Of a DNA stretch of 27,207 nt, positions 2,872 to 27,207 are shown piece by piece. Where the stretch lies: positions 1 through 27,207 of the forward strand of contig JACPCX010000152.1 in assembly GCA_016184305.1 (NCBI GenBank). The letters are read 5' to 3'. Positions within the stretch are counted from its first letter, which is position 1. Every line of letters begins with the position of its first letter. Made by a program: the position numbers and the translations under genes. Source of the stretch: Candidatus Rokuibacteriota bacterium. GTDB taxonomy: Bacteria > Methylomirabilota > Methylomirabilia > Rokubacteriales > CSP1-6. The notes beneath the pieces were generated by a model. That model saw nothing but the letters and a program-made list of their open reading frames with translations. It ran no database searches and was not told the DNA's origin.

Positions 2872-4605
<1,734 letters not shown>

Positions 4606-4620
4606 CCTGCGCCCGAGACC

Positions 4621-4649
4621 GCCAACGCAGCAGATGGGCCTTTTTCAGC
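4621..4649 (+). repeat. Fragment (right end) of the hairpin/MITE-like repeat
   Basis: GCCAACGCAGCAGATGGGCCTTTTTCAGC matches the right end of the full copies at 4655-4842 and 20655-20839. Confidence 0.7.
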
Positions 4650-4654
4650 CCTCG

Positions 4655-4842
4655 CAGGCCGCTCAAGAAGGTCCAGATGCAAGGCGGCGCCCGACGGCCG
4701 CACGCGAGGCGTACTCGGCTTGGCGATCCGAGCCGGAGGCGAGGTGAGCGGATCCGGAGATCCGGGCGAGCGTGAGCGAGCCACGTTGAGGTTGCGGCCG
4801 AGGGCGCCGTACCTCCGCAGATGGGCCTTTTTCAGCGGCCTG
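4655..4842 (+). mobile_element. MITE-like palindromic repeat, copy 1
   Basis: Terminal inverted repeats CAGGCCGCTCAAGAAGGTCCA and TGGGCCTTTTTCAGCGGCCTG (18 of 21 paired), internal paired arms, flanking CTAG at 4843-4846 that holds the ntrC stop, no transposase, and a homologous copy at 20655-20839. Confidence 0.75.
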
Positions 4843-6270
<1,428 letters not shown>

Positions 6271-6280
6271 GACGGGTGAC

Positions 6281-7366
6281 CTACCTTGCCACCGGGAGAA
6301 AGCACGACACCGTGGTCCCCCGCTCGGGCTCGCTTTCCACCTGGATCGTGCCCTTGTGCTCCTCGAGAATGCGGTGGCACAGGGCGAGCCCGAGCCCGAG
6401 CCCCCGGTCCTTGGTGGTGAAGAAGGGCGTGAACAGCTGGGCGCGCGTCGCCTCGGGGATCCCCTGGCCCTCGTCCACGAACTGCACCTCCGCCAGGCTT
6501 CGTGGGCCCTGCCCCAGGTCCACCTTGGAGAAGAGCGGGCTCATGCTGAGCCGCGTGATGAGCGTGAGCCGGCCGCCCGCGGGCATCGCCTCGAGCGCGT
6601 TCCGCACCACGTTGTGAAAGACCTGCAGCATCCGATCCTCGTCGACGAGGATCGGGGGCAGGCTCGGGTCGTAGCGCCTGATGATCTGCACGCCTTGCTG
6701 CGCCGCCATCTCCTGGGAGAGGAGCGCAACGCGCTCGAGGAGCTGGTGGAGATTGAGGGGCGCCAGGCGCAAGGTCACGGGACGGCCGAGGTCCAGCAGC
6801 CTCTCGATGATCCGGTTGACGCGGTTGACCTCGTTGAGCAGGACCTCCGTGTACTCGCCAAAGCGCCCGTCGTCGCCAAGCTCGCGCTGCATGAGCTGCA
6901 CGGCGCCGCGGATGGCGGAGAGCGGGTTCCGGATCTCGTGGGCGAGCCCCATCGCCATCCGCCCCACCGCCGCCAGCGTCTCGCCGCGGCGCACCTCGGC
7001 CTCGAGCTGGTGCAGGCGTGTCATGTCCCGGATCACGGCGACGGCGGCCTCGACGGCGCCGCTGCGTGAGGCCAGAGGCGCCGTCATCACACTGACGTGG
7101 ATCGGCCGGCCGTCGCCCCCGTCCAGCGCCGCCTCCGACTCCGAGCGGCGTTCGCCCGTCGTGAGGGTGCCGGTGAGATGGCGAACCAGGGAGGTGTCCG
7201 GCGGGAAAACGTCCTTCAGGGTCCGGCCGAGCACCCGGCGGGCCGAGCGGCCAAGCAGCGCCTCGGCGGCCGGGTTCCAGAGGACGATCCGCAGCCCCTC
7301 GTCCACGCCCACCACGGCGTCCGGGAGGCCCGCCAGGAGCGCTTCGTAGTCCAGCCGTGCGGTCAT
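6281..7366 (-). CDS. ntrB: PAS-domain sensor histidine kinase, NtrB/GlnL-like
   Basis: N-terminal PAS (WNPAAEALLG), H-box LAHEIRNPLSAIRGAVQL, YDPSLPPI, DEGQGI, FTPFFTTK and GLGLGL. Cytoplasmic, 361 aa. Confidence 0.85.
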   Translation of the reverse strand: MTARLDYEALLAGLPDAVVGVDEGLRIVLWNPAAEALLGRSARRVLGRTLKDVFPPDTSLVRHLTGTLTTGERRSESEAALDGGDGRPIHVSVMTAPLASRSGAVEAAVAVIRDMTRLHQLEAEVRRGETLAAVGRMAMGLAHEIRNPLSAIRGAVQLMQRELGDDGRFGEYTEVLLNEVNRVNRIIERLLDLGRPVTLRLAPLNLHQLLERVALLSQEMAAQQGVQIIRRYDPSLPPILVDEDRMLQVFHNVVRNALEAMPAGGRLTLITRLSMSPLFSKVDLGQGPRSLAEVQFVDEGQGIPEATRAQLFTPFFTTKDRGLGLGLALCHRILEEHKGTIQVESEPERGTTVSCFLPVAR

Positions 7367-9298: not shown

Positions 9299-10594
9299 CT
9301 AGCGGACCTGCGCCTGCGTCCCCGCGGGAGTCGGACGCGTCCGATCGAGGATCCGCATCGCCTTGAGCAGGTCCAGCGCCCGCTGCAGCTGCGGATCGCG
9401 CTTGAGATCGTCCTGCGGCTTCGTGTCCACGGTCTGGCCCGAGGGCTTGGCCGGCGCCGGCTGCTCTGCGGGGGCCGCGGCCGCGGTGACCCTGGGCACT
9501 TCGACGATGATGTCGGGCGTGACGCCCTTGCCGTGGATGGAGCGACCCTTGGGCGTGAAGTACTTGGCCGTCGTGAGCCTGAGACCGGACCCGTCCGACA
9601 GCGGAATGATCGTCTGCACCGACCCCTTGCCGAAGGTCTGCGTGCCCAGCACGACGGCCCGGCCATGGTCCTGGAGCGCCCCGGCGACGATCTCGGAGGC
9701 GGAGGCGCTGCCCTGGTTCACCAGCACGACGATGGGGAAGTCGGCGTACACGCGCTTGGCGTTGGCCTGGAACCGCATGTTCTGGTTGCGCACGCGCCCC
9801 TCGGTGTACACGACGAGTTTCCCCGTCTCGATGAACCTCTCCGACACCTCCACCGCGGAGGTGAGGAGCCCGCCCGGATTGTTGCGCAGGTCCAGCACCA
9901 GCCCCTGGATCTTGTCGTTTTTCGTGAACTTGTCGAGGGCGGCCTCCATGTCCTGGGCCGTCTGTTCCTGGAACTGGCGCAGGCGGATGTACTCGATCCC
10001 CGGCTCGAGCGGCATGGCGCGCACGGACTGGACGTGGATCTGCTCGCGGGCGATCTCGAAGTCCTTCGGCTCCGTGAAGCCCTCGCGCATGATGCTGATG
10101 ATGATCTTCGTGCCCGGCTTGCCGCGCATGCGCTTCACCGCGTCGGTCAGCTGCATGTCCTTGGTGGTGAGACCCTCGATCTTCACGATGCGGTCCCCGG
10201 ACTGGATCCCCGCGCGGTAGGCCGGCGTGCCGTCGATGGGCGCCACGACCGTGAGCACGTCGTCGCGCAGCGTGATCTCGATCCCGAGGCCCCCGAAGCT
10301 GCCGGTGGTCTCCACCTGCATTTCCCGGTACATCGCGGGATCGAGGAACGACGAGTGCGGGTCGAGGCCGCGCAGCGTTCCCTTGATGGCGCTGTAGATG
10401 ATGTCCTTGGCGGCCACCTCGTCCACGTACTGGCTCTGGACGATGGACAGCACCTCGGTGAACAGCCGGAGGTTCTCGTAGGTCGCCGCCTGGTCATTCC
10501 CCTTGCTCGCCACGCCGCCGCCCACGGACAGCGTGAGCACCAGCAGCAGCGCCGAGGCCAGCGCGACCCTCTTGATGTGCCGAATCGGACCCAT
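9299..10594 (-). CDS. ctpA: Carboxyl-terminal processing protease, S41 family (CtpA)
   Basis: LDPHS, PDZ GGLGIEI, DLRNNPGG, SASASEIVAGALQD and FGKGSVQ, with a signal-like N-terminus. Start set at ATG 10594 behind GGAGGAGG. Confidence 0.93.
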   Translation of the reverse strand: MGPIRHIKRVALASALLLVLTLSVGGGVASKGNDQAATYENLRLFTEVLSIVQSQYVDEVAAKDIIYSAIKGTLRGLDPHSSFLDPAMYREMQVETTGSFGGLGIEITLRDDVLTVVAPIDGTPAYRAGIQSGDRIVKIEGLTTKDMQLTDAVKRMRGKPGTKIIISIMREGFTEPKDFEIAREQIHVQSVRAMPLEPGIEYIRLRQFQEQTAQDMEAALDKFTKNDKIQGLVLDLRNNPGGLLTSAVEVSERFIETGKLVVYTEGRVRNQNMRFQANAKRVYADFPIVVLVNQGSASASEIVAGALQDHGRAVVLGTQTFGKGSVQTIIPLSDGSGLRLTTAKYFTPKGRSIHGKGVTPDIIVEVPRVTAAAAPAEQPAPAKPSGQTVDTKPQDDLKRDPQLQRALDLLKAMRILDRTRPTPAGTQAQVR

Positions 10595-13411: not shown

Positions 13412-13440
13412 ATTCTACTTAACCCTTTAACCTTTCGGAA
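13412..13440 (-). promoter_or_regulatory. Putative internal sigma70 promoter for ftsEX
   Basis: Minus strand TTCCGA-17 bp-TAGAAT in an AT-rich patch. The -10 ends 11 nt before the ftsE ATG; the -35 is weak. Confidence 0.4.
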
Positions 13441-14881
13441 GTTTTTCCCCCAGCAGCTGATTTACCAGCGCCGGGTTGGCCCGTCCCAGCGTCGCCTTCA
13501 TGACCTGGCCCACCAGGAAGCCCAGGGCGGCCTTCTTTCCCCCACGCCAGTCCTCGACGACCTTGGGGTGCGCCGCCAGGACCTGGTCCACGACTCGCGT
13601 CAGCTCGCCGGCTTCCGCGACCTGGATGAGCCCCTCTCGCAGGACGATGGACGGGGCGTCCTGGCCGGTCCGGTACATCGTCTCGAAGATGTCCTTGGCC
13701 ATCTTGCCGCTGATGGTCCCGTCGTCGATCAGCCGGAGGAGCCCGGCCAGGTTGCGGGGTGGGATCGGACAGGCCGCCACCCTGCGGTCATCGTCCGCGG
13801 GCATCTCGCGCAGGAGCTCGTTGAGCACCCAGTTGGCGACGATCTTGGGCTTGTCGTACTCCCTCACCGTCGTCTCGAAGTAATCGGCCAGCGTCCGTCC
13901 CTGGGTGAGAAGGTCGGCGTCGTACGCCGATAATCCGTAATCGCCGGCGAAGCGCCGGCGGCGCGCGGCCGGCATCTCCGGAAGAGTGGCACGGATCGCC
14001 TCGACCCACCGGGCCTCGACCTGGAGCGGCGGCAGGTCCGGCTCCGGGAAATAGCGGTAGTCGTGGGCATACTCCTTGGAGCGCATGGAGACGGTCCGGA
14101 CGCGCTCCGGGTCCCACAGCCTCGTCTCCTGGACAATCTTCTGGCCCTCGGCGAGCGCGCGCTCCTGCCGCTTGACCTCGTACTCCAGGGCATGCTGGAC
14201 GTTCCGGAAGGAGTTCATGTTCTTGATCTCGACCTTGACACCGAGCTCCTGGCTCCCCGCGGGGCGCAGCGAGACGTTGGCGTCGCAGCGCAGCGACCCC
14301 TCCTCCATGTTCCCGTCGCAGACGCCGAGGTAGACGACGATGGTCCGGAGCGTGCGCAGGTAGGCCGCGGCCTCCGCGGGGCTTCGCATGTCGGGCCTGG
14401 AGACGATCTCCATGAGGGGGACGCCGGCCCGGTTGAAATCCACGGTGCTCGACTGGGCCGTCTCGAGCGGTCCCTCGTGGATGAGCTTGCCCACGTCCTC
14501 CTCGAGGTGAAGCCGCTGGATGCCGATGGTGCGCGAGGAGCCGCCGACCTCGATGTCGAGGACGCCGTGCTCGGCCAGCGGCTCCTCGTACTGGCTGATC
14601 TGGAAGTTCTTCGGCATGTCCGGGTAGTAGTAGTGCTTCCGCGCGAAGCGGTGGTGCTCGTTGACCCGGCAGCCCACCGCCAGCGCGGTCCTGATCCCGA
14701 ACTCCACCGCGCTCCGGTTGATCACCGGCAGCGCCCCCGGCATGCCCTGGCACACGGGACAGGTCTGGCTGTTGGGCGCCGCGCCGAAGGCCGTCGAGCA
14801 GCCGCAGAACATCTTGCTGCGGGTCAGGAGCTGGGCGTGGACCTCGAGCCCGATGACGGTCTGGAGCGCGGGGGCGGTCAT
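13427..14881 (-). CDS. gatB: Asp/Glu-tRNA amidotransferase subunit B
   Basis: [50 protein letters not shown] and GQVMKAT. ATG 14881 overlaps the gatA stop (ATGA). Confidence 0.97.
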
Positions 14882-16247
14882 GGGAGGGTGGGCTTTCTCA
14901 GGTGCCAGTCGGTGGCCTGCTGGTAGGCGTGGGCGGCGCGCAGCACGGTGGACTCGTCGAAGGCCCGCCCGATGAGCTGCAGCCCGATCGGGAGCCCCGA
15001 CGTCGTGAAGCCCGCGGGCACTCTGCAGGGGATCCGTCTTCTCGCCCAGCGTGAACGCCACACCCGGCGTGGTGGGCGCGGCGAGCACGTCCACCCGCTC
15101 GAAGGCCTCCTGGAAATCCCGCCGGACCAGCGTCCGCACGCGCTGGGCCTTTCCGTAGTAGGCGTCGTAGTAGCCCGCGGACAGCGCATAGGTGCCGAGC
15201 ATGATCCGGCGCTTGACCTCGGCCCCGAAGCCCGCCGCCCGCGTCCGGCCGTACATCTCGATCAGGTCGCGTCCGCCCGGCACCCGGAGCCCGTACTTCA
15301 CGCCGTCGTACCGAGCCAGGTTCGAGGAGGCCTCGGCGGGAGCGATGACGTAGTACGCGGCCAGCCCGTACCGGGTGTGCGGGAGCGACACGGCTTCCGG
15401 CCGCGCTCCGAGGCCGCGAAGCACCTCGATGGCCGCCTTCACCGCCGCCTCCACCTCGGGATCGATCCCGTCGATGAAGTACTCGGCGGGAATCCCGACC
15501 CGGAGCCCCTCGATTCCCCCCTCGAGCGCCGCGCGGTAGTCGGGCACGGGGACGTCCACCGAGGTCGAGTCCCGGGGGTCGGCGCCGGCGATGACCCCCA
15601 GGACCAGCGCCGCGTCGGCCACCGTCTTCGCGAAGGGGCCGATCTGGTCCAGCGATGAGGCGAAGGCGATGAGGCCGTACCGCGAGACGCGCCCGTAGGT
15701 GGGCTTGAGGCCCACCGTCCCGCAGAAGGCCGCCGGCTGCCGGATGGAGCCGCCGGTGTCCGACCCGAGCGTCGCCGCGGCGAGGTCGGCGGCGGCCGCG
15801 GCCGCCGAGCCGCCGGACGAGCCCCCGGGCACGCGCTCCAGATCCCAGGGGTTCCGCGTGGGGAAGAAGGCCGAGTGCTCCGTGGACGAGCCCATGGCGA
15901 ACTCGTCCATGTTGAGCTTGCCGAGGAGCACGGCGCCCGCCGCGCGGAGCCGCGCCATCACCGTGGCGTCGTACGGCGGCACTGGTGCGGATCCCCCGCG
16001 TGCAGAGCAGGTCCTTGAGGGCAATGGGGACGCCGTCGAGCGGCGAGAGCGGCCGGCCGGCCGTGAAGCGCGCGCCGGCCTCCGCCGCCTGGCCGAGCGC
16101 CGCCTGCCGCGTCACCGTGAGGAAGGCGTTCACGCGGCCGTCGAGCGCCTCGATGCGCTCGAGGTACGCCGCCGCCGCCTGACTCGGCGTGGCCTCGCCC
16201 CGGCGGAAGCGGGCCCCCAGCTCCTCGATGGTGAGGCGCGTGAGCAT
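14878..16247 (-). pseudogene. gatA: Asp/Glu-tRNA amidotransferase subunit A with two frameshifting deletions (probably assembly errors)
   Basis: Three frames: MLTRLT...[15 protein letters not shown], then VPPYDATV...[13 protein letters not shown]...GGSSGGS...[11 protein letters not shown]...EVKRRIMLG...DPLQ, then VPAGF...[10 protein letters not shown]. Junctions at 15983/15982 and 15022/15021. Confidence 0.9.
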
Positions 16248-22383: not shown

Positions 22384-23340
22384 TCATGGCGACCTGTGGC
22401 GCAGGCGAGACAGCAGGCGCTCCATTCTGTCGGGCAAAGGAGACAGGAGATCCACGGGGGCCCCGGAGCCCGGATGAGTGAAGGCCAGCCCCGCGGCGTG
22501 TAGCGCCACGCCGTCGAGCTCGCGGATGAGCCGGGCCAGCTCGAGGTCCCCGACAGGAGCCGCGCGGCGCCGGCCGTAGGTCTCGTCACCCAGGAGCGGG
22601 TGGCCGAGCGAGGCCAGGTGCACGCGGATCTGATGCGTGCGGCCGGTCTCGAGCCGGCACTCGAGGAAGCTGACGCCCGGAAAGCGCTCCAGGACGGTGA
22701 AGCGCGTCACCGCCCGCTTGCCTTTGCCCTCCCGGGCCACCGCCATGCGCACCCGCGAGCGCGGGTCGCGTCCGATGGGCGCGTCGATCACTCCGCTCTG
22801 CCGCGTGACCGTCCCGTGGACGAGACAGAGGTAGCGGCGGTTGACGCTCCGGCGCGCCAGCTGTGCCGTCAGCGCCTCGTAGGCGCGTTGCGTCTTCGCC
22901 AGCACGATCAGGCCCGAGGTGCCCTTGTCCAGCCGGTGGACGATCCCCGGCCGGCGTGGTCCCCCGACGCCCGCGATCCCGGGGGCATGGGCCAGCGCCG
23001 CCGCCGCCAGGGTGCCGGTGCGCTGCCCCGCCCCCGGATGCGTCACCATCCCCGCGGGCTTGTCCACCACGAGCACGTCCTCGTCCTCGAAGACGATGCG
23101 GAGCGGGATCGCTTCCGGGGCCATGGTCTCGAGAGGCGGCGGAGGGATGAGAACCTCGACGCGCTCGCCGGCCCTGAGGCGATGCGCCGCCTTGACGGCG
23201 TGACCGCCCACGCGGACCTGACCGCCATCGATCAGCGCGCGGAGCCGCGTACGCGAGAGATCCGGGAGGCGCCCGGCCAGCCAGCGGTCCAGCCGCGTCC
23301 CGGCCTCGGCATGGGCGACCGTGGCGGTCCAGGTCTTCAA
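22384..23340 (-). CDS. rluD: 23S rRNA pseudouridine synthase RluD
   Basis: S4 domain (RLDRWL...SRTRL), VVDKPAGM, RPGIVHRLDKGTSG, LETGRTHQIRVH, GDETYG and ALHA. TTG start. Confidence 0.92.
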   Translation of the reverse strand: MKTWTATVAHAEAGTRLDRWLAGRLPDLSRTRLRALIDGGQVRVGGHAVKAAHRLRAGERVEVLIPPPPLETMAPEAIPLRIVFEDEDVLVVDKPAGMVTHPGAGQRTGTLAAAALAHAPGIAGVGGPRRPGIVHRLDKGTSGLIVLAKTQRAYEALTAQLARRSVNRRYLCLVHGTVTRQSGVIDAPIGRDPRSRVRMAVAREGKGKRAVTRFTVLERFPGVSFLECRLETGRTHQIRVHLASLGHPLLGDETYGRRRAAPVGDLELARLIRELDGVALHAAGLAFTHPGSGAPVDLLSPLPDRMERLLSRLRHRSP

Positions 23341-23560
23341 CTGCCGCCCGCGCGAGTTCGCCAGCCGGGCCTCCCGTCACCGACCGCGACATGACGCGGA
23401 GGGAACCTGCGCGCGCGGCGGGCACGCGGTCGGCTCGGCCGGGAGCTCAGGGGCCAATCCCCTTGCTCCATGGCGCGCAAGACCCAGAAGGCGGCCACCA
23501 GGACCAGGAGCGATCGGCCGAGGCCGGTGGACGGAAGGTCATGCGAATGGGCGAACGAGA

Positions 23561-23567
23561 GTTGGGC
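23561..23567 (-). other. Remnant attC R'' box (GCCCAAC) after the last cassette
   Basis: GCCCAAC matches RYYYAAC and lies 9 nt after the toxin stop, but no complementary arm follows. Confidence 0.35.
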
Positions 23568-23576
23568 AGCGTCGTT

Positions 23577-23870
23577 TCAGAGCCGTGACCGCCGGTAGCC
23601 GGGTCGACGGTGAAGGTGCATGACCGCCACGATGTAGATGCGCTCAGGCTCGACACGATACAGGAGGCCGTAGGGACACTTCGGAACCAGAAGACGCCTG
23701 AGCCGGCGACCAAACGGCGGGCCGCTGGCAGGAAACTCGAGCAGTCGTTCGTACGTGCGCTGAACCGTGAGGAGGAAGTCCAGCCCGAGCCCACCCGCTT
23801 GGCTCTCGTAGAACTGCGCGGCCGAAATGAACTCGTCCTGTGCCTCGGGATAAAACTCAACGCTTCTCAC
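23577..23870 (-). CDS. Type II toxin, RelE/ParE superfamily
   Basis: 97 aa with F.PEAQDEF..A.QFYE...GLG.DF and PYGLLYRV...IVAVMHLHRRPGY. The GTG start overlaps the upstream stop (GTGA). Confidence 0.88.
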   Translation of the reverse strand: MRSVEFYPEAQDEFISAAQFYESQAGGLGLDFLLTVQRTYERLLEFPASGPPFGRRLRRLLVPKCPYGLLYRVEPERIYIVAVMHLHRRPGYRRSRL

Positions 23871-24337
23871 CGAAGCGCGGAGCGAGCCTTCTTGATCACC
23901 TTCTCGGCAGCAATCCCGACGGCCTCTCCGGACTTGAGCTGGCCCAGGCGACGCTCCGCCTCCTCAAGCCAGAGTTGCTCAGCATCCGCATCTGCTTCCT
24001 GATCGAGGCTGGAGAGGAGGCGTTGCGCGAGGCGGGCGCGGTCCCGGCGCGAGAGCTTCAGGGCCTTCGATTCGAGTCCGCGCGCCGGCTCGCGGCGCGT
24101 CCGTGTTGAGCGGGTAGTCGGGCGAGCGGAGGACTTGCGATCGCGAAGCAGCCCTCGCAGCGCCTTGTTGACGGCACGATCATTTGGAAACGCCTTGGCG
24201 ACCTTCGGATCGAGGACGACCACATTCGTGGCTTCAATGACCCGGTGTGCGTACTTGCCGCGAACCAACGTCCCAAAGTCGGAACGCTTGTACTCGGACC
24301 GCAGATCCTCAGTCGCTCTTCGGCTAGCCTTGTTCAT
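23867..24337 (-). CDS. In-frame fusion, as sequenced, of a BrnA-like antitoxin and an addiction-module antitoxin lacking its own start
   Basis: ATG 24337 behind GGAGG. The N-part is DLRSEY..SDF...RGKYA...VVLDPKVAKAFPNDRAVNKALR. The linker PTTRSTRTRR is read through half an attC. The C-part is ALKLSRRDRARLAQRLLSSLD...WLEEAERR....SGEAVGI, typical of antitoxins preceding ParE/RelE. Confidence 0.75.
   Translation of the reverse strand: MNKASRRATEDLRSEYKRSDFGTLVRGKYAHRVIEATNVVVLDPKVAKAFPNDRAVNKALRGLLRDRKSSARPTTRSTRTRREPARGLESKALKLSRRDRARLAQRLLSSLDQEADADAEQLWLEEAERRLGQLKSGEAVGIAAEKVIKKARSALR
24080..24123 (-). other. Truncated attC site (left half only)
   Basis: Minus strand GCCCGAC-TACCC-GCTCAACA-CGGAC-GCGCCGCGAGCCGGCGCGC gives R'', a 5-nt spacer, an L''-like box and the central hairpin, then jumps abruptly into coding sequence. 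L' and R' are missing. Confidence 0.6.
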
Positions 24338-24596
24338 AGATCCTCCTTTCACTTGGTGTCGCTGGCCGTGCCCTGATGATCCTGATTGTATCGTCACCTT
24401 TGGTGTGAGCGATGGCCAGAAGGCCGCCGCGGGTCGAGATGCCGAAGGTGACGAACCGCTCTTCGTCGACTGAATGGTCAGGGTCTGCGCCAGTTGCCGA
24501 CAGGACGTCGCGGAACACCGTTGCCGCTTCTTCGAACGAGACGCCATGTCTGGCAAGATTCTCCGCCGCCTTGCCGGGATCCCATTCGAAGCGCAA
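24324..24596 (-). CDS. BrnT family ribonuclease toxin
   Basis: MRFEWDPGKAAENLARHGVSFEEA..VF, DPDHS..EERF..G and IRIIRARPAT..ERRIYE. TTG start with GGAGG 5 nt upstream; overlaps the antitoxin start. Confidence 0.92.
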   Translation of the reverse strand: MRFEWDPGKAAENLARHGVSFEEAATVFRDVLSATGADPDHSVDEERFVTFGISTRGGLLAIAHTKGDDTIRIIRARPATPSERRIYEQG

Positions 24597-24621
24597 TCAC
24601 GCCTCCCTCCCTTGATCCGCC

Positions 24622-24706
24622 GCCCAACGGGGGCGGCGGATGAGCGGCGGGCGGCCCTGCGAGCAGGTTCGCAGGGCCGCCCGTCCGCTCCAGCCGCATG
24701 TTAGCT
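24622..24706 (-). other. Integron attC recombination site (85 bp)
   Basis: Minus strand AGCTAAC-ATGCG-GCTGGAGC-GGAC-GGGCGGCCCTGCGA-ACCTGC-TCGCAGGGCCGCCC-GCC-GCTCATC-CGCCGCCCCC-GTTGGGC. It shows R''/L''/L'/R' architecture, a 14-bp perfect core stem, expected unpaired bases, and the upstream gene's TAA inside R''. Confidence 0.82.
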
Positions 24707-25645
24707 GGCTCCTCGTCGGCGTCCGTCATGCGCTGCCCCCTCGACTCTGATCGCGGGTTCGGGTCGGTCAAAGGCCGGAGGCTCGCCCGCGTACTGCCGC
24801 CATCGCTCCTCGTACTGTGCACGGTCGAGAAGCTGGATGTCATCGGTGTCTCCATGATCCCCTTCGTCCAGTCCCACTCCGAAGATCACGCCGCCGAGGT
24901 CGGTCAAGATGTAGCGGTTGTGCAGGCGCTCCCCGCCCGGGCGCTGGCGCAACCGGACCATCTCCACGCGCAGGCCGATCGGGATGCAGACGGGAAGTCG
25001 CTGACGGCATTCATCGCAGAAGAACGCCGTTGTCGACCCGCCATCCGCTGAGGACTGCACTTCGAGCCGCCGCGGTGCCTCGCCCGGTCGCGCGTCAACA
25101 ACCGAGCGAAGAAACCGCTCCAAGGGCCGGCGGTGGCGGCCGTTCTCGGGACCGAAGTGCGGATCCACGAACACCAGGACGTCGGCGATGCGGAGCATGC
25201 TCGCGACGGCCGCGGCCATGTCCATCGCCGTCCGGGGAACCGTACAGCCGCGGGGAACCCCCCAGAGCGGCGTCGCGTCGTCGATCTCGTCAGCGACCAG
25301 CACCATTGTGAGCCCGCGCGGGTTGCTCCTGGCCAGAATCGCGTGGAACGGGACGCGCGCGTGCTCGTCTTCGGCGTTGTGGAGCCAGGCAGCGCTCGGA
25401 TCCCAGCGGCCGTCCCGGCGCTTCACCATGGTCTCTCTCAGGCGCTCGAGCAGCTCCGTCATTCGCGCACGCTCAACGTCGTTGCCGCTCGTGAACGCCT
25501 CCCAGACGAGCCTCTTCCAGCGTTTGGGATACCGCGACACGATGCGAGGCTGCCCGAGGCCGAACTTCTCGATGAAGTAGCGCCCGACGCCACGGTCGAC
25601 CCAGGTGGCGACGAGCTCGGGTTCGAGGGCGTACTCGTGGATCAT
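24701..25645 (-). CDS. Uncharacterised 314-aa protein with C-terminal MIT_C/PLD-like motifs (putative nuclease effector)
   Basis: Starts 3 nt after the ATPase stop. Motifs VFVDPHF and LHNRYILTDLGGVIFGVGLD resemble the DPY...HDRxI..D.G..I.lGrGLD pattern of MIT_C PLD-like domains (recognised by eye). The stop lies in the attC. Confidence 0.7.
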   Translation of the reverse strand: MIHEYALEPELVATWVDRGVGRYFIEKFGLGQPRIVSRYPKRWKRLVWEAFTSGNDVERARMTELLERLRETMVKRRDGRWDPSAAWLHNAEDEHARVPFHAILARSNPRGLTMVLVADEIDDATPLWGVPRGCTVPRTAMDMAAAVASMLRIADVLVFVDPHFGPENGRHRRPLERFLRSVVDARPGEAPRRLEVQSSADGGSTTAFFCDECRQRLPVCIPIGLRVEMVRLRQRPGGERLHNRYILTDLGGVIFGVGLDEGDHGDTDDIQLLDRAQYEERWRQYAGEPPAFDRPEPAIRVEGAAHDGRRRGAS

Positions 25646-25648
25646 CGC

Positions 25649-27207
25649 TCAGAAGAGCTCCCGTGAGCGCTCCGGGAAGAAACCCTCCGGCCAGGGCCGT
25701 TCGAACTCGCCGTCTGCGGTCACCGGGATGTGGATCACCTCGGCGCCATCGCTGCCCGGTTGCACGTAGAGCACGGACACGTCCTCGGGTCGGGCGGTCG
25801 GGGCTCCCTCCGGAAGCTCGCCGTCGGTCGTCTCCCGGATGCGCCGCAGGATGCGGAGGATCAGGTGTTCGCTGTGCGTTTCAAGCAGGAAGGTGTTCCG
25901 CTGCTCCCCGAGGGCGGAGGCGAGGAACACGTCGCCGAGCTCCGCCTGCAAGGCCGGGTGCAGGTGGATCTCGGGCTGCTCGATGGCCACGAGCTGGTCG
26001 CGGAAGGCGTAGGCCGACACAAGCACGGGCAGCACCTGGCTGACACCGATACCGACGTCGCGATGGCTCACCGGTGTCCCCGTCCGCTTGTCGATCAGCA
26101 CGAGGTCCTGGATCGCCTCCGCGCGCGCCTCGACTAGCTCTTCGGCCCAGCGCTCGGCCAACGCTTCCGAATCGGTGGCCGCGGCGACGAGCGCCTCGAT
26201 CTCGGGAATTGTGTCCTCGACATTCTCATGGTCGAGGTCGGCGACCTGTTCGGCGACCTCGCCGGCCAGGGTCACCAGGCCCGGCTGCTCTTCCCCGTGG
26301 AGCGTGGCGAGCATCGACCCCGCGAGGTCGTGCAGCGCCTTCGCGATCTTCGGCGGCAGCTCGTTCGCCATCGCCACGGCGGGCAGTAGCTCGCGCACCA
26401 CGAGTTCGTACGGCGACTTGAGTCGGGCCGAGTCGCCGAGCCAGTCGTTCACCTGCCGGCGGATCTCCTCGCGCGTGCGGACCACGTCCCAGGCGTAGCC
26501 CCCGCCGGCGAACCAGTTCGGGTCGTGGTGCTGCGCGAAGGAGAGGTGGCGCGGGGGATAGGAGCGCAGCGGCCCGAGGTAGCGCAGGCGGCGCATCTCG
26601 TGTTCAACCGCGGCGCCAACGCCTCCGACCAGATCGCGGAGCGCGCCGGGCAGGAAGAGCCGGGCCGCTCGGGCAAGGTCCTCCTGACGCCTCCCGCGGC
26701 TCACGGGGAGCAAGCCCGCCGGTGCTTGTCGCTCTTGAGCTTCGACCTCCTCCTCGAGCCGGGGCAGGAGGCCGCGGCATCGAGCGGTGATGCGCGGCAC
26801 GAGCTCGTCGAGGATCTCTCCCAGCCCCGCGAAATCGTCCTCGCGCACATCCTCAGTCGTAGTGGCGAATGTCACGATTCCGCGTAGCAGTTCCCGGAAG
26901 GCCGGGTGCTGGTGATCCAGCCGGTCGAGGCGCAAGAGCCCGCCCGGACGCGCGCTCATAGAGAGGAGCGGCACGCCGTCGACTATCAGCCCGAAGCGCT
27001 CCACGCGCACGCCGCCCTCGCGGTCGAGCTCGCGGGCGAAGTCTCCGAAGAGCGTTCGCTGCTCGCTCGCGAATCCGGCGCCGATGGCCAGCTCCACGGT
27101 CACCCCGCGCGCCGAGCGCAGAAGCTCCGCCACCCGCCCGGAGAGGCGCCCCGGGTCGATCTCGAACGCGATCTCGACCTGCCGGCCGCGTTCGCGCCGG
27201 TGGACGT
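25649..27207 (-). CDS. ABC/AAA-type ATPase (AAA_15/AAA_21-like) with a DUF3696-like C-terminus; 5' end beyond the window
   Basis: The frame is open to the window edge. It contains YLGPLRSYP, signature DVGIGVSQVLPVLV, Walker B/D-loop VAIEQPEIHLHPALQ, H-loop LETHSEHL and tail DGEFERPWPEGFFPERSRELF. Walker A is outside the window. Confidence 0.85.
   Translation of the reverse strand, partial: VHRRERGRQVEIAFEIDPGRLSGRVAELLRSARGVTVELAIGAGFASEQRTLFGDFARELDREGGVRVERFGLIVDGVPLLSMSARPGGLLRLDRLDHQHPAFRELLRGIVTFATTTEDVREDDFAGLGEILDELVPRITARCRGLLPRLEEEVEAQERQAPAGLLPVSRGRRQEDLARAARLFLPGALRDLVGGVGAAVEHEMRRLRYLGPLRSYPPRHLSFAQHHDPNWFAGGGYAWDVVRTREEIRRQVNDWLGDSARLKSPYELVVRELLPAVAMANELPPKIAKALHDLAGSMLATLHGEEQPGLVTLAGEVAEQVADLDHENVEDTIPEIEALVAAATDSEALAERWAEELVEARAEAIQDLVLIDKRTGTPVSHRDVGIGVSQVLPVLVSAYAFRDQLVAIEQPEIHLHPALQAELGDVFLASALGEQRNTFLLETHSEHLILRILRRIRETTDGELPEGAPTARPEDVSVLYVQPGSDGAEVIHIPVTADGEFERPWPEGFFPERSRELF

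Follow-up and report, generated by a model that had tools for sequence, protein, structure and literature searches.

What do the two adjacent genes at the end of contig JACPCX010000152.1 of a Candidatus Rokuibacteriota bacterium encode, and do they belong to a known system? The window analysed here is this whole contig (27,207 bp, C108 in our numbering) from assembly GCA_016184305.1, which comprises 3.2 Mb in 239 contigs with a G+C content of approximately 70% and is 88.8% complete. The initial annotation, made from the letters of the window, had described the pair as a candidate new anti-phage system consisting of an ABC ATPase and a phospholipase D (PLD)-like effector carried in one integron cassette. 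Our analysis indicates that the two genes probably form a module of the Menshen/HEC-03/PARIS type in which an ATPase controls a nuclease, and that its function is most likely anti-phage, in the style of abortive infection. The description that fits it best is that of an NsnB-NsnC-like module which stands alone (Menshen without NsnA) and is often located behind type I restriction-modification (R-M) genes, and we read it as a relative of the known Menshen architecture and not as a categorically new system. The two genes, which are open reading frames (ORFs), are arranged as follows.

25649-27205, minus strand: gene 1, the C-terminal 518 amino acids of an ABC-type (OLD/NsnB-like) ATPase, from ORF, Pfam and PADLOC matches
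25646-25648, minus strand: intergenic gap of 3 nucleotides (nt), GCG, from the TGA stop of the ATPase to the ATG of gene 2
24701-25645, minus strand: gene 2, an effector candidate of 314 amino acids with a PIN-like N-domain and a MIT_C/PLD-like C-domain

The tight coupling of two minus-strand genes with a 3-nt gap, as first described, was confirmed. The 5' end of gene 1 is open, as the ORF runs off the end of the contig, and from the length of an orthologue in a related locus (L014) it was estimated that approximately 75 N-terminal residues fall beyond it, so that gene 1 as available has no Walker A motif. This orthologue is full length at 593 amino acids, is 76% identical to gene 1 and carries GANSAGKS, and its partner is 62% identical to gene 2. 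Recovery of the full ATPase had been recommended; tblastn with the 593-residue orthologue against the assembly gave only the window itself and no N-terminus on any other contig.

All of the gene 1 motifs that had been read from the sequence were present, and their conservation was scored in an alignment of 37 ATPases.

26036-26059, minus strand: signature-like motif DVGIGVSQ, amino acids 383-390, in which GxG replaces SGG; G385, G387 and Q390 invariant
25955-25993, minus strand: Walker B motif LVAIEQPEIHLHP, amino acids 405-417, in which an EQ dyad replaces DE; E409, Q410, P411, E412, H414 and H416 invariant
25865-25882, minus strand: H-loop ETHSEH, amino acids 442-447; E442, H444, S445 and E446 invariant
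25658-25789, minus strand: DUF3696 C-terminal tail, amino acids 473-516, from Pfam
25676-25693, minus strand: WPEGFF, amino acids 505-510; W505, P506, G508, F509 and F510 invariant

The patterns G-x-G-x-x-Q, E-Q-P-E-x-H-x-H-P, E-x-H-S-E and W-P-x-G-F-F were thus invariant throughout the alignment. Pfam analysis of gene 1 gave matches to AAA_21 (8e-12), AAA_15 (2e-10) and DUF3696 (1.3e-4), the last being barely above threshold at 22.6 bits against a cut-off of 22. With the PADLOC models, matches were obtained to PDC-M55A (5e-31), NsnB (1.6e-26), HEC-03B (5e-25) and AriA (3.5e-13), together with weak matches to GajA and PtuA, and seven full-length relatives of the ATPase scored 120-152 bits against NsnB and PDC-M55A and 81-120 bits against HEC-03B. 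These matches support the assignment of gene 1 to the ABC ATPases of the DUF3696 type, with AriA, PtuA and GajA as relatives, and are in agreement with the kinship to the PARIS, Septu and Gabija ATPases originally put forward. A PADLOC search had also been proposed as a measure of novelty, and its outcome was divided: no model matched gene 2, but the ATPase was matched by PDC-M55A, NsnB and HEC-03B.

An AlphaFold2 model of gene 2, built from 63 sequences, had a predicted local distance difference test score (pLDDT) of 96.2 and a predicted template modelling score (pTM) of 0.92, and residue conservation was counted in 63 aligned sequences. The protein was divided as follows.

25256-25645, minus strand: N-terminal PIN-like (three-layer alpha/beta) domain, amino acids 1-130, a modest fold match
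24731-25255, minus strand: C-terminal domain, MIT_C-type member of the PLD superfamily, amino acids 131 to approximately 300-305
25154-25165, minus strand: DPHF, amino acids 161-164, with D161 following a beta-strand
24866-24922, minus strand: HNRYILTD..GVGLD, amino acids 242-260, a single H-x-R-(x)4-D followed by G-x-G-L-D

Both short motifs had been noted at the start, and both proved to be conserved. Position 161 was acidic in 63/63 sequences, with P162 in 62 and F164 in 59 of the 63; H242 was found in 62/63, R244 in 63/63, an acidic residue at position 249 in 81%, G258 in 61/63 and D260 in 59/63. The stretch H242-N-R244-YILT-D249 has the exact spacing of the PLD motif H-x-K-(x)4-D with arginine in place of lysine, and occurs once. 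Foldseek analysis of the modelled C-domain gave six PDB matches at E ≤ 1e-3 (FAM83, TrmBL2, PLD, Nuc, SauUSI and MITD1), in agreement with the MIT_C/PLD fold with a single H-x-R that had been predicted for this half of the protein, and the model supports a PLD fold whose nearest counterpart is MITD1/MIT_C. The earlier description is supported for the C-domain but overlooked both the PIN-like N-terminal domain and the linkage to type I R-M genes presented below. In the N-domain the D-E-D-D acidic quartet of PIN domains is not conserved in the family, since the conserved acidic positions among the 63 sequences were only E4, E8 and E94 and no conserved acidic residue was found at positions 105-125. 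This domain would serve as an adaptor for the ATPase tail.

No family match was found for gene 2 in Pfam, NCBIfam or PADLOC. A profile of the gene 2 family searched against PDB sequences gave a best E value of 0.077, which was irrelevant, and with the Pfam MIT_C model (PF16565) no match to gene 2 or to any of 62 relatives was obtained with the threshold relaxed to E ≤ 10. When the gene 2 profile was run over approximately 400 gammaproteobacterial genomes it matched two BrxL proteins of 675-690 amino acids (E values of 9e-9 and 2.6e-5), and the matched C-terminal regions of both are MIT_C by Pfam (1e-45 and 3e-41). Two of the 63 family members matched the PADLOC BrxL model at 1e-5, and one protein-atlas cluster neighbouring the family carried MIT_C on 13% of its members. 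The family is large: a word-indexed search returned 903 homologues, and an exhaustive search returned 1913 representative clusters (at 50% identity) at E ≤ 1e-3, 1355 at E ≤ 1e-10 and 538 at E ≤ 1e-30. Members that carry a name are called 'hypothetical protein' in their sources.

A scan with one genome per species gave 43 related loci, one of which (L050) begins inside gene 2, so that 42 hold upstream DNA. Similarity to the ATPase of the window was detected by tblastn immediately upstream of gene 2 in all 42, and in 41 of these the upstream ORF ended -4 to +3 nt from the start of gene 2 (29 nt in L049). As the ATPase is upstream in every case and abutting in all but one, a pairing far beyond chance is confirmed, and the two genes form one unit as had been claimed. 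The loci span more than ten phyla, among them Acidobacteriota, Desulfobacterota, Chloroflexota, Myxococcota, Planctomycetota, Binatia, Gemmatimonadota, Latescibacterota, Schekmanbacteria, Elusimicrobia and Pseudomonadota. Four copies of the pair are on plasmids (Deinococcus, two from Methylocella, Azotobacter); none was found among 50,697 phage records, and four IMG/VR contigs gave matches, in three of them near the contig end. The abutting ORF was short (165-261 amino acids) in five loci (L011, L032, L039, L040, L049) and in L011 a separate ORF just upstream holds the N-terminal ATPase motifs, from which we take some copies of the ATPase to be split or frameshifted. A diverged second ATPase or a tandem copy of the whole pair was observed in L041 (3491-6150 and 6352-8951), L021/L022 (approximately 3650-5250) and L037 (approximately 10030-10460).

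The neighbours of the pair in the related loci comprised 250 ORFs in 167 clusters, of which 144 representatives were scanned with Pfam and 23, each shorter than 110 amino acids, were left out. The three largest same-strand upstream clusters were HsdS (Methylase_S, 17/43 loci), HsdM (N6_Mtase with HsdM_N, 15/43) and HsdR (HSDR_N/ResIII/EcoEI_R_C, 14/43), which gives hsdR-hsdM-hsdS-ATPase-gene 2 as the commonest order, and the pair was directly behind type I hsdR-hsdM-hsdS in 17 of the 43 loci. An independent instance of the same order is the RefSeq annotation of a Methylocella tundrae plasmid, which reads helicase, methyltransferase, S subunit, AAA ATPase, hypothetical protein, SIR2 and DUF87. 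Defence genes in other loci included an OLD-type TOPRIM ATPase (L014), TIR-SLOG (L024), SIR2-STALD (L051), GASH with double GTPases (L036), nSTAND1-WD40 (L032), CHAT/nSTAND with GmrSD (L050), Cap15 (L023) and a KAP NTPase with UvrD (L017); UvrD-PDDEXK (L016), SNF2/DEAD helicases, REase-ARP, YhcG, integrases and transposases were also found. The check on co-occurrence and defence-gene enrichment that had been advised thus gave a conserved pair whose relatives lie among defence genes. In the genome of the window itself the sole hsdS-like gene is mid-contig on another contig (C120), and no link of the pair to a type I R-M system of its own genome was found. Two Latescibacterota loci contain a protein of approximately 1505 amino acids with no Pfam match between hsdS and the ATPase (L029, 1534-6048; L034, 1611-6131).

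Sigma-54 activators were observed near the pair in 13 of the 43 loci and in L059. In five loci (L012, L018, L038, L047, L048) a textbook sigma-54 promoter (TGGCAC/TGGCAT/TGGTAC-N5-TTGC) was located 56-64 nt before the ATPase start. The relatives with this promoter are Desulfobacterota and Binatia, and the enhancer-binding protein, the N-terminal approximately 220 amino acids of which have no Pfam match, is often encoded directly upstream or divergently. This suggests that expression of the module is inducible and activator-controlled in the lineages that have the promoter.

The pairing had not been recognised as a named system, but the same architecture was published in 2025 as the NsnB-NsnC part of Menshen (Li et al., NAR 2025, PMC12065111). 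In the parts of that paper which deal with domain architecture, NsnB is an ABC ATPase that carries a DUF3696 helix and in which the signature is GxG and the Walker B dyad is altered, and NsnC combines an inactive-PIN (inPIN) N-domain with one of 15 effector domains, including the MIT_C-like PB-PLD1, in which an aspartate or glutamate follows beta2 and H-[DN]-R precedes beta5. Gene 1 has the same DUF3696 tail, GxG signature and altered dyad, and gene 2, with its PIN-like N-domain and C-terminal effector domain, is built as the NsnC with PB-PLD1 described there; D161 and H242-N-R244 fit the acidic residue after beta2 and the H-[DN]-R motif, and the top structural matches given for PB-PLD1 (2YMB, 6EHI and Tdp1) are shared by gene 2. 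According to the same sections, Menshen frequently neighbours type I R-M and BREX, as does the pair. The AlphaFold 3 models presented in that paper (PMC12065111) have the inPIN domain clamped by the two DUF3696 tails of an NsnB dimer, and from these models we infer, by analogy, that the DUF3696 tail of gene 1 is a docking element for gene 2. The pair differs from Menshen in that NsnA (ParB-DUF262 with ParBDB) is absent from the related loci and from the assembly of the window, that gene 2 is not matched by the PADLOC NsnC model, and that the motif is HNR and not HDR. No name for the pair itself was found in a literature search or in PADLOC v2.0.0 (2023), and published catalogues beyond that scope may list the family.

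Menshen reportedly protects against phages, as Millman and colleagues are said to have found in 2022. HEC-03, which with Menshen is among the closest characterised relatives, is described in the relevant part of its preprint (Payne et al. 2024, 10.1101/2024.01.29.577857) as a two-gene ABC ATPase and PIN protein located inside another system, which protects E. coli and for which both genes are required. Like the pair it consists of an ATPase and a PIN-domain protein among other defence systems, and its ATPase model, named HEC-03B in PADLOC and HEC-03A in the preprint, is the one matched by gene 1 above. Its partner, as described there, is a PIN protein of the VapC type that lacks a PLD domain; no HEC-03 model is matched by gene 2, and HEC-03 is embedded in Hma whereas the pair is embedded in type I R-M. 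PDC-M55, an untested PADLOC candidate, provided the best match of gene 1, with relatives scoring up to 150 bits, but no PDC-M55 partner model was matched by gene 2 or its 62 aligned relatives at E ≤ 1, and no paper carrying this name was found in the literature search.

PARIS (AriA/AriB), Septu (PtuA/PtuB) and Gabija (GajA/GajB) also place a nuclease under the control of an ABC ATPase, with weak hidden Markov model matches to gene 1; PARIS releases its nuclease, as cited in the text of the Menshen paper (PMC12065111). Their effectors are TOPRIM or HNH and not PLD, and they lack both the DUF3696 tail on the ATPase and the PIN-like adaptor on the partner. The AriB TOPRIM (DUF4435) was not found in gene 2, which has a PLD fold instead and gave no PADLOC AriB match. 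The C-terminus of BrxL and the eukaryotic MITD1 share with gene 2 the PLD-like fold and a motif of the H-x-R / G-x-G-L-D type, and differ in their N-terminal parts (a Lon-like ATPase in BrxL, a MIT domain in MITD1). PrrC and RloC are ATPase-controlled nucleases set in type I R-M loci, where they serve as a second line once restriction has been blocked; a functional analogy with the pair may be drawn on this basis, but they are single polypeptides with an anticodon-nuclease domain and have neither PLD nor DUF3696. Both names also appear in the HEC preprint.

Taken by analogy with these systems, an oligomer of the ATPase would hold the gene 2 protein by its DUF3696 tail (WPxGFF), which would clamp the PIN-like N-domain and keep the effector latent until an infection cue, acting through ATP binding or hydrolysis, released or re-positioned it. 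From the structural model, the effector would be a single-motif PLD phosphodiesterase of the MIT_C type acting through D161 and H242-x-R244-(x)4-D249. One-motif PLD nucleases pair with a second copy to form the active site, and two copies of gene 2 would likewise pair to complete one active site, after which the released effector would cleave nucleic acid. Because type I hsdRMS genes immediately precede the pair in relatives, anti-restriction proteins or the failure of the neighbouring restriction system may provide the cue, and this position suggests that the pair serves as a back-up once restriction has been blocked, as for PrrC. A prediction of the complex between two copies of ATPase residues 330-518 and gene 2 residues 1-135 gave scores of 0.42, 0.02 and 0.02 and hence no answer either way. 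We put forward only tentatively the more specific proposal that the NsnA-independent module guards restriction, with the DUF3696 ATPase monitoring type I R-M or the phage products that disable it and releasing a catalytic MIT_C PLD enzyme, and with expression inducible by sigma-54 and an enhancer-binding protein in some lineages. If this were true, no MIT_C domain would have been shown to be catalytic before this one, and the C-terminus of BrxL and perhaps eukaryotic MITD1 could be expected to have enzymatic roles as well. The pair also provides a compact and tractable case in which to ask if PLD domains of the MIT_C type, which BrxL of BREX and human MITD1 have too, act as enzymes. That an NsnB-NsnC core occurs alone as a two-gene unit behind type I R-M bears on the way in which sensors are exchanged among ABC-ATPase defence systems. 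This multi-phylum family is large, yet its members appear in RefSeq as 'AAA family ATPase' and 'hypothetical protein', and the effector family has no Pfam or PADLOC model.

The anti-phage role proposed for the pair is well supported by its relatives and its context, from which we infer it. Several points weigh against this interpretation. Approximately 26 of the 43 loci show no R-M genes, and in several Binatia and Latescibacterota loci the neighbours are mostly metabolic, plus a sigma-54 activator. The local neighbours in the window are toxin-antitoxin and housekeeping genes only, since the upstream side is absent from the contig. As no PADLOC model matches gene 2, its relation to NsnC is one of fold and architecture. 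The MIT_C domain of MITD1 is a membrane binder, and we know of no MIT_C domain for which enzymatic activity has been demonstrated. In the Menshen paper, catalysis by the MIT_C-like domain is presented, where it is discussed, as a hypothesis (PMC12065111).

The pair had also been described as an integron gene cassette, closed by an attC site whose R'' box contains the stop codon of gene 2. Such carriage, with mobilisation by an integron integrase acting on the attC-like repeat, would be compatible with a defence role. The sequence in question is the following.

24600-24712, minus strand: GC-rich imperfect inverted repeat with attC-like boxes AGCTAAC / GTTGGGC, after gene 2

The inverted repeat, which has bulged bases, and the placement of the TAA stop in the R''-like AGCTAAC were both found as described, and GTTGGGC, approximately 78 nt downstream, fits GTTRRRY. 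A single attC hairpin was not obtained: with DNA parameters the minimum-energy fold consisted of two separate hairpins on either strand (-50.9 / -51.7 kcal/mol), the second of which carries GTTG in its loop, and a fold in which AAC and GTT (R'' and R') were forced to pair does exist (-39.2 / -41.0 kcal/mol) but was 11-12 kcal/mol worse. The window contained neither an integrase nor an attI nor an array of sites of this kind, no second site was found at 23300-24760, after the next genes, and no integrase match in the genome exceeded the TIGR02249 cut-off.

Elsewhere in the genome two integron-integrase-like fragments were observed. An IntI-like N-terminus on C170 (2 to approximately 320, minus strand) runs off the contig end and scored 75 bits, below the TIGR02249 cut-off; it is followed by a transposase-like frame, judged by eye with no family search, and then by a housekeeping-type gene. 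An internal IntI segment on C229 (approximately 6400-6800, plus strand; 122 bits, model positions 65-160) lies inside an unrelated open frame. A second copy of the repeat was found at C224:23224-23291 (87% over 68 nt), with poor R boxes and a further GAGCGG-stem-CCGCTC unit extending to 23400, in a region with HicB-, MazF- and BrnT-like frames on its two sides and IS110-like and ISAzo13-like transposase frames nearby, again judged by eye with no family search. The G+C content of positions 23400-27207 is lower (0.65-0.70) than that of the adjoining core genes glmU, glmS, pcrA, gatCAB and rluD (0.70-0.74), and at third codon positions the pair has a G+C content of 0.82-0.87 and the toxin-antitoxin genes one below 0.75, as compared with 0.88-0.96 in the core genes; such a composition is in keeping with horizontal acquisition of the region.

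The fit of the boxes, the existence of an R''/R'-paired fold, the integrase-like fragments, the second copy in a toxin-antitoxin and IS-rich region and the lower G+C content of the island all speak for a cassette. Against it stand the preference for two independent hairpins, the lack of any integrase adjacent to the pair or above the cut-off, a C170 fragment adjoined by a transposase-like frame and a housekeeping-type gene and not by cassettes, the poor R boxes of the C224 copy, and the relatives, which do not lie in integrons and in which a loose AAC...GTTRRRY pair followed gene 2 in only 1 of 42 loci and a comparable hairpin in none. We therefore consider a cassette origin unlikely; integron carriage is unproven at this locus and is not a trait of the family.

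A non-immune function, either as an addiction module in which the ATPase restrains a toxin that stabilises the island or as a sigma-54-regulated system for stress-induced nucleic-acid processing, repair or turnover, appears more doubtful still. It would account for the BrnT and ParE genes that adjoin the pair in the window, for the sigma-54 activators in 13 of the 43 loci and the five promoters described above, and for the metabolic neighbours at many Binatia and Latescibacterota loci, and it would be in keeping with no MIT_C domain being known to be catalytic. Inducible expression is, however, also compatible with immunity, type I R-M and recognised defence genes predominate among the conserved neighbours, and Menshen reportedly protects against phages. 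Protection is also what the HEC-03 preprint describes for that relative (10.1101/2024.01.29.577857).

The absence of NsnA, on which the description of the pair as free-standing depends, was examined at three levels. In the related loci no DUF262/GmrSD_N gene was found upstream of the ATPase among the 144 of 167 cluster representatives scanned, the only match being a GmrSD-type gene downstream in L050, and the 88.8%-complete assembly of the window contained no PF03235 and no PADLOC NsnA or NsnC match. In one class-level sample, NsnA-like matches (E ≤ 1e-10) were obtained in 38 of 401 genomes, a tally that includes one flagged as unpublished (G144), and 17 of these were strong (E ≤ 1e-54); the gene 2 profile matched in 6 of 400 genomes of the same sample, four with family members and two with BrxL. 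None of the 17 genomes with strong NsnA had a gene 2 homologue and none of the four with a non-BrxL homologue had a co-located NsnA, the sole overlap (G117) having its matches on different contigs. An ordinary three-gene Menshen with nsnA, the ParB-DUF262 sensor gene, just past the contig end is thus very improbable, even though the contig ends inside the ATPase with the upstream gene out of view, gene 1 scores about as well against NsnB as against any other PADLOC model, and gene 2 has the architecture given for NsnC with PB-PLD1 in the domain descriptions of Li et al. (PMC12065111).

Downstream of the module is a toxin-antitoxin cluster (23577-24596, minus strand), beyond which rluD and other core genes follow without another copy of the repeat.

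24324-24596, minus strand: BrnT toxin, directly downstream of the pair
23867-24337, minus strand: ORF of 156 amino acids with a C-terminal Unstab_antitox domain and approximately 93 N-terminal amino acids with no Pfam match
23577-23870, minus strand: ParE toxin

The 156-residue ORF may be a fused or chimeric antitoxin, as it is placed where antitoxins of both the BrnA and the ParD type would be expected. Further into the contig an open frame of 865 amino acids (13427-16024, minus strand) contains Amidase (GatA, profile positions 66-390 only), GatB_N and GatB_Yqey matches, and is either a gatA-gatB fusion, a frame disturbance or an assembly artefact.

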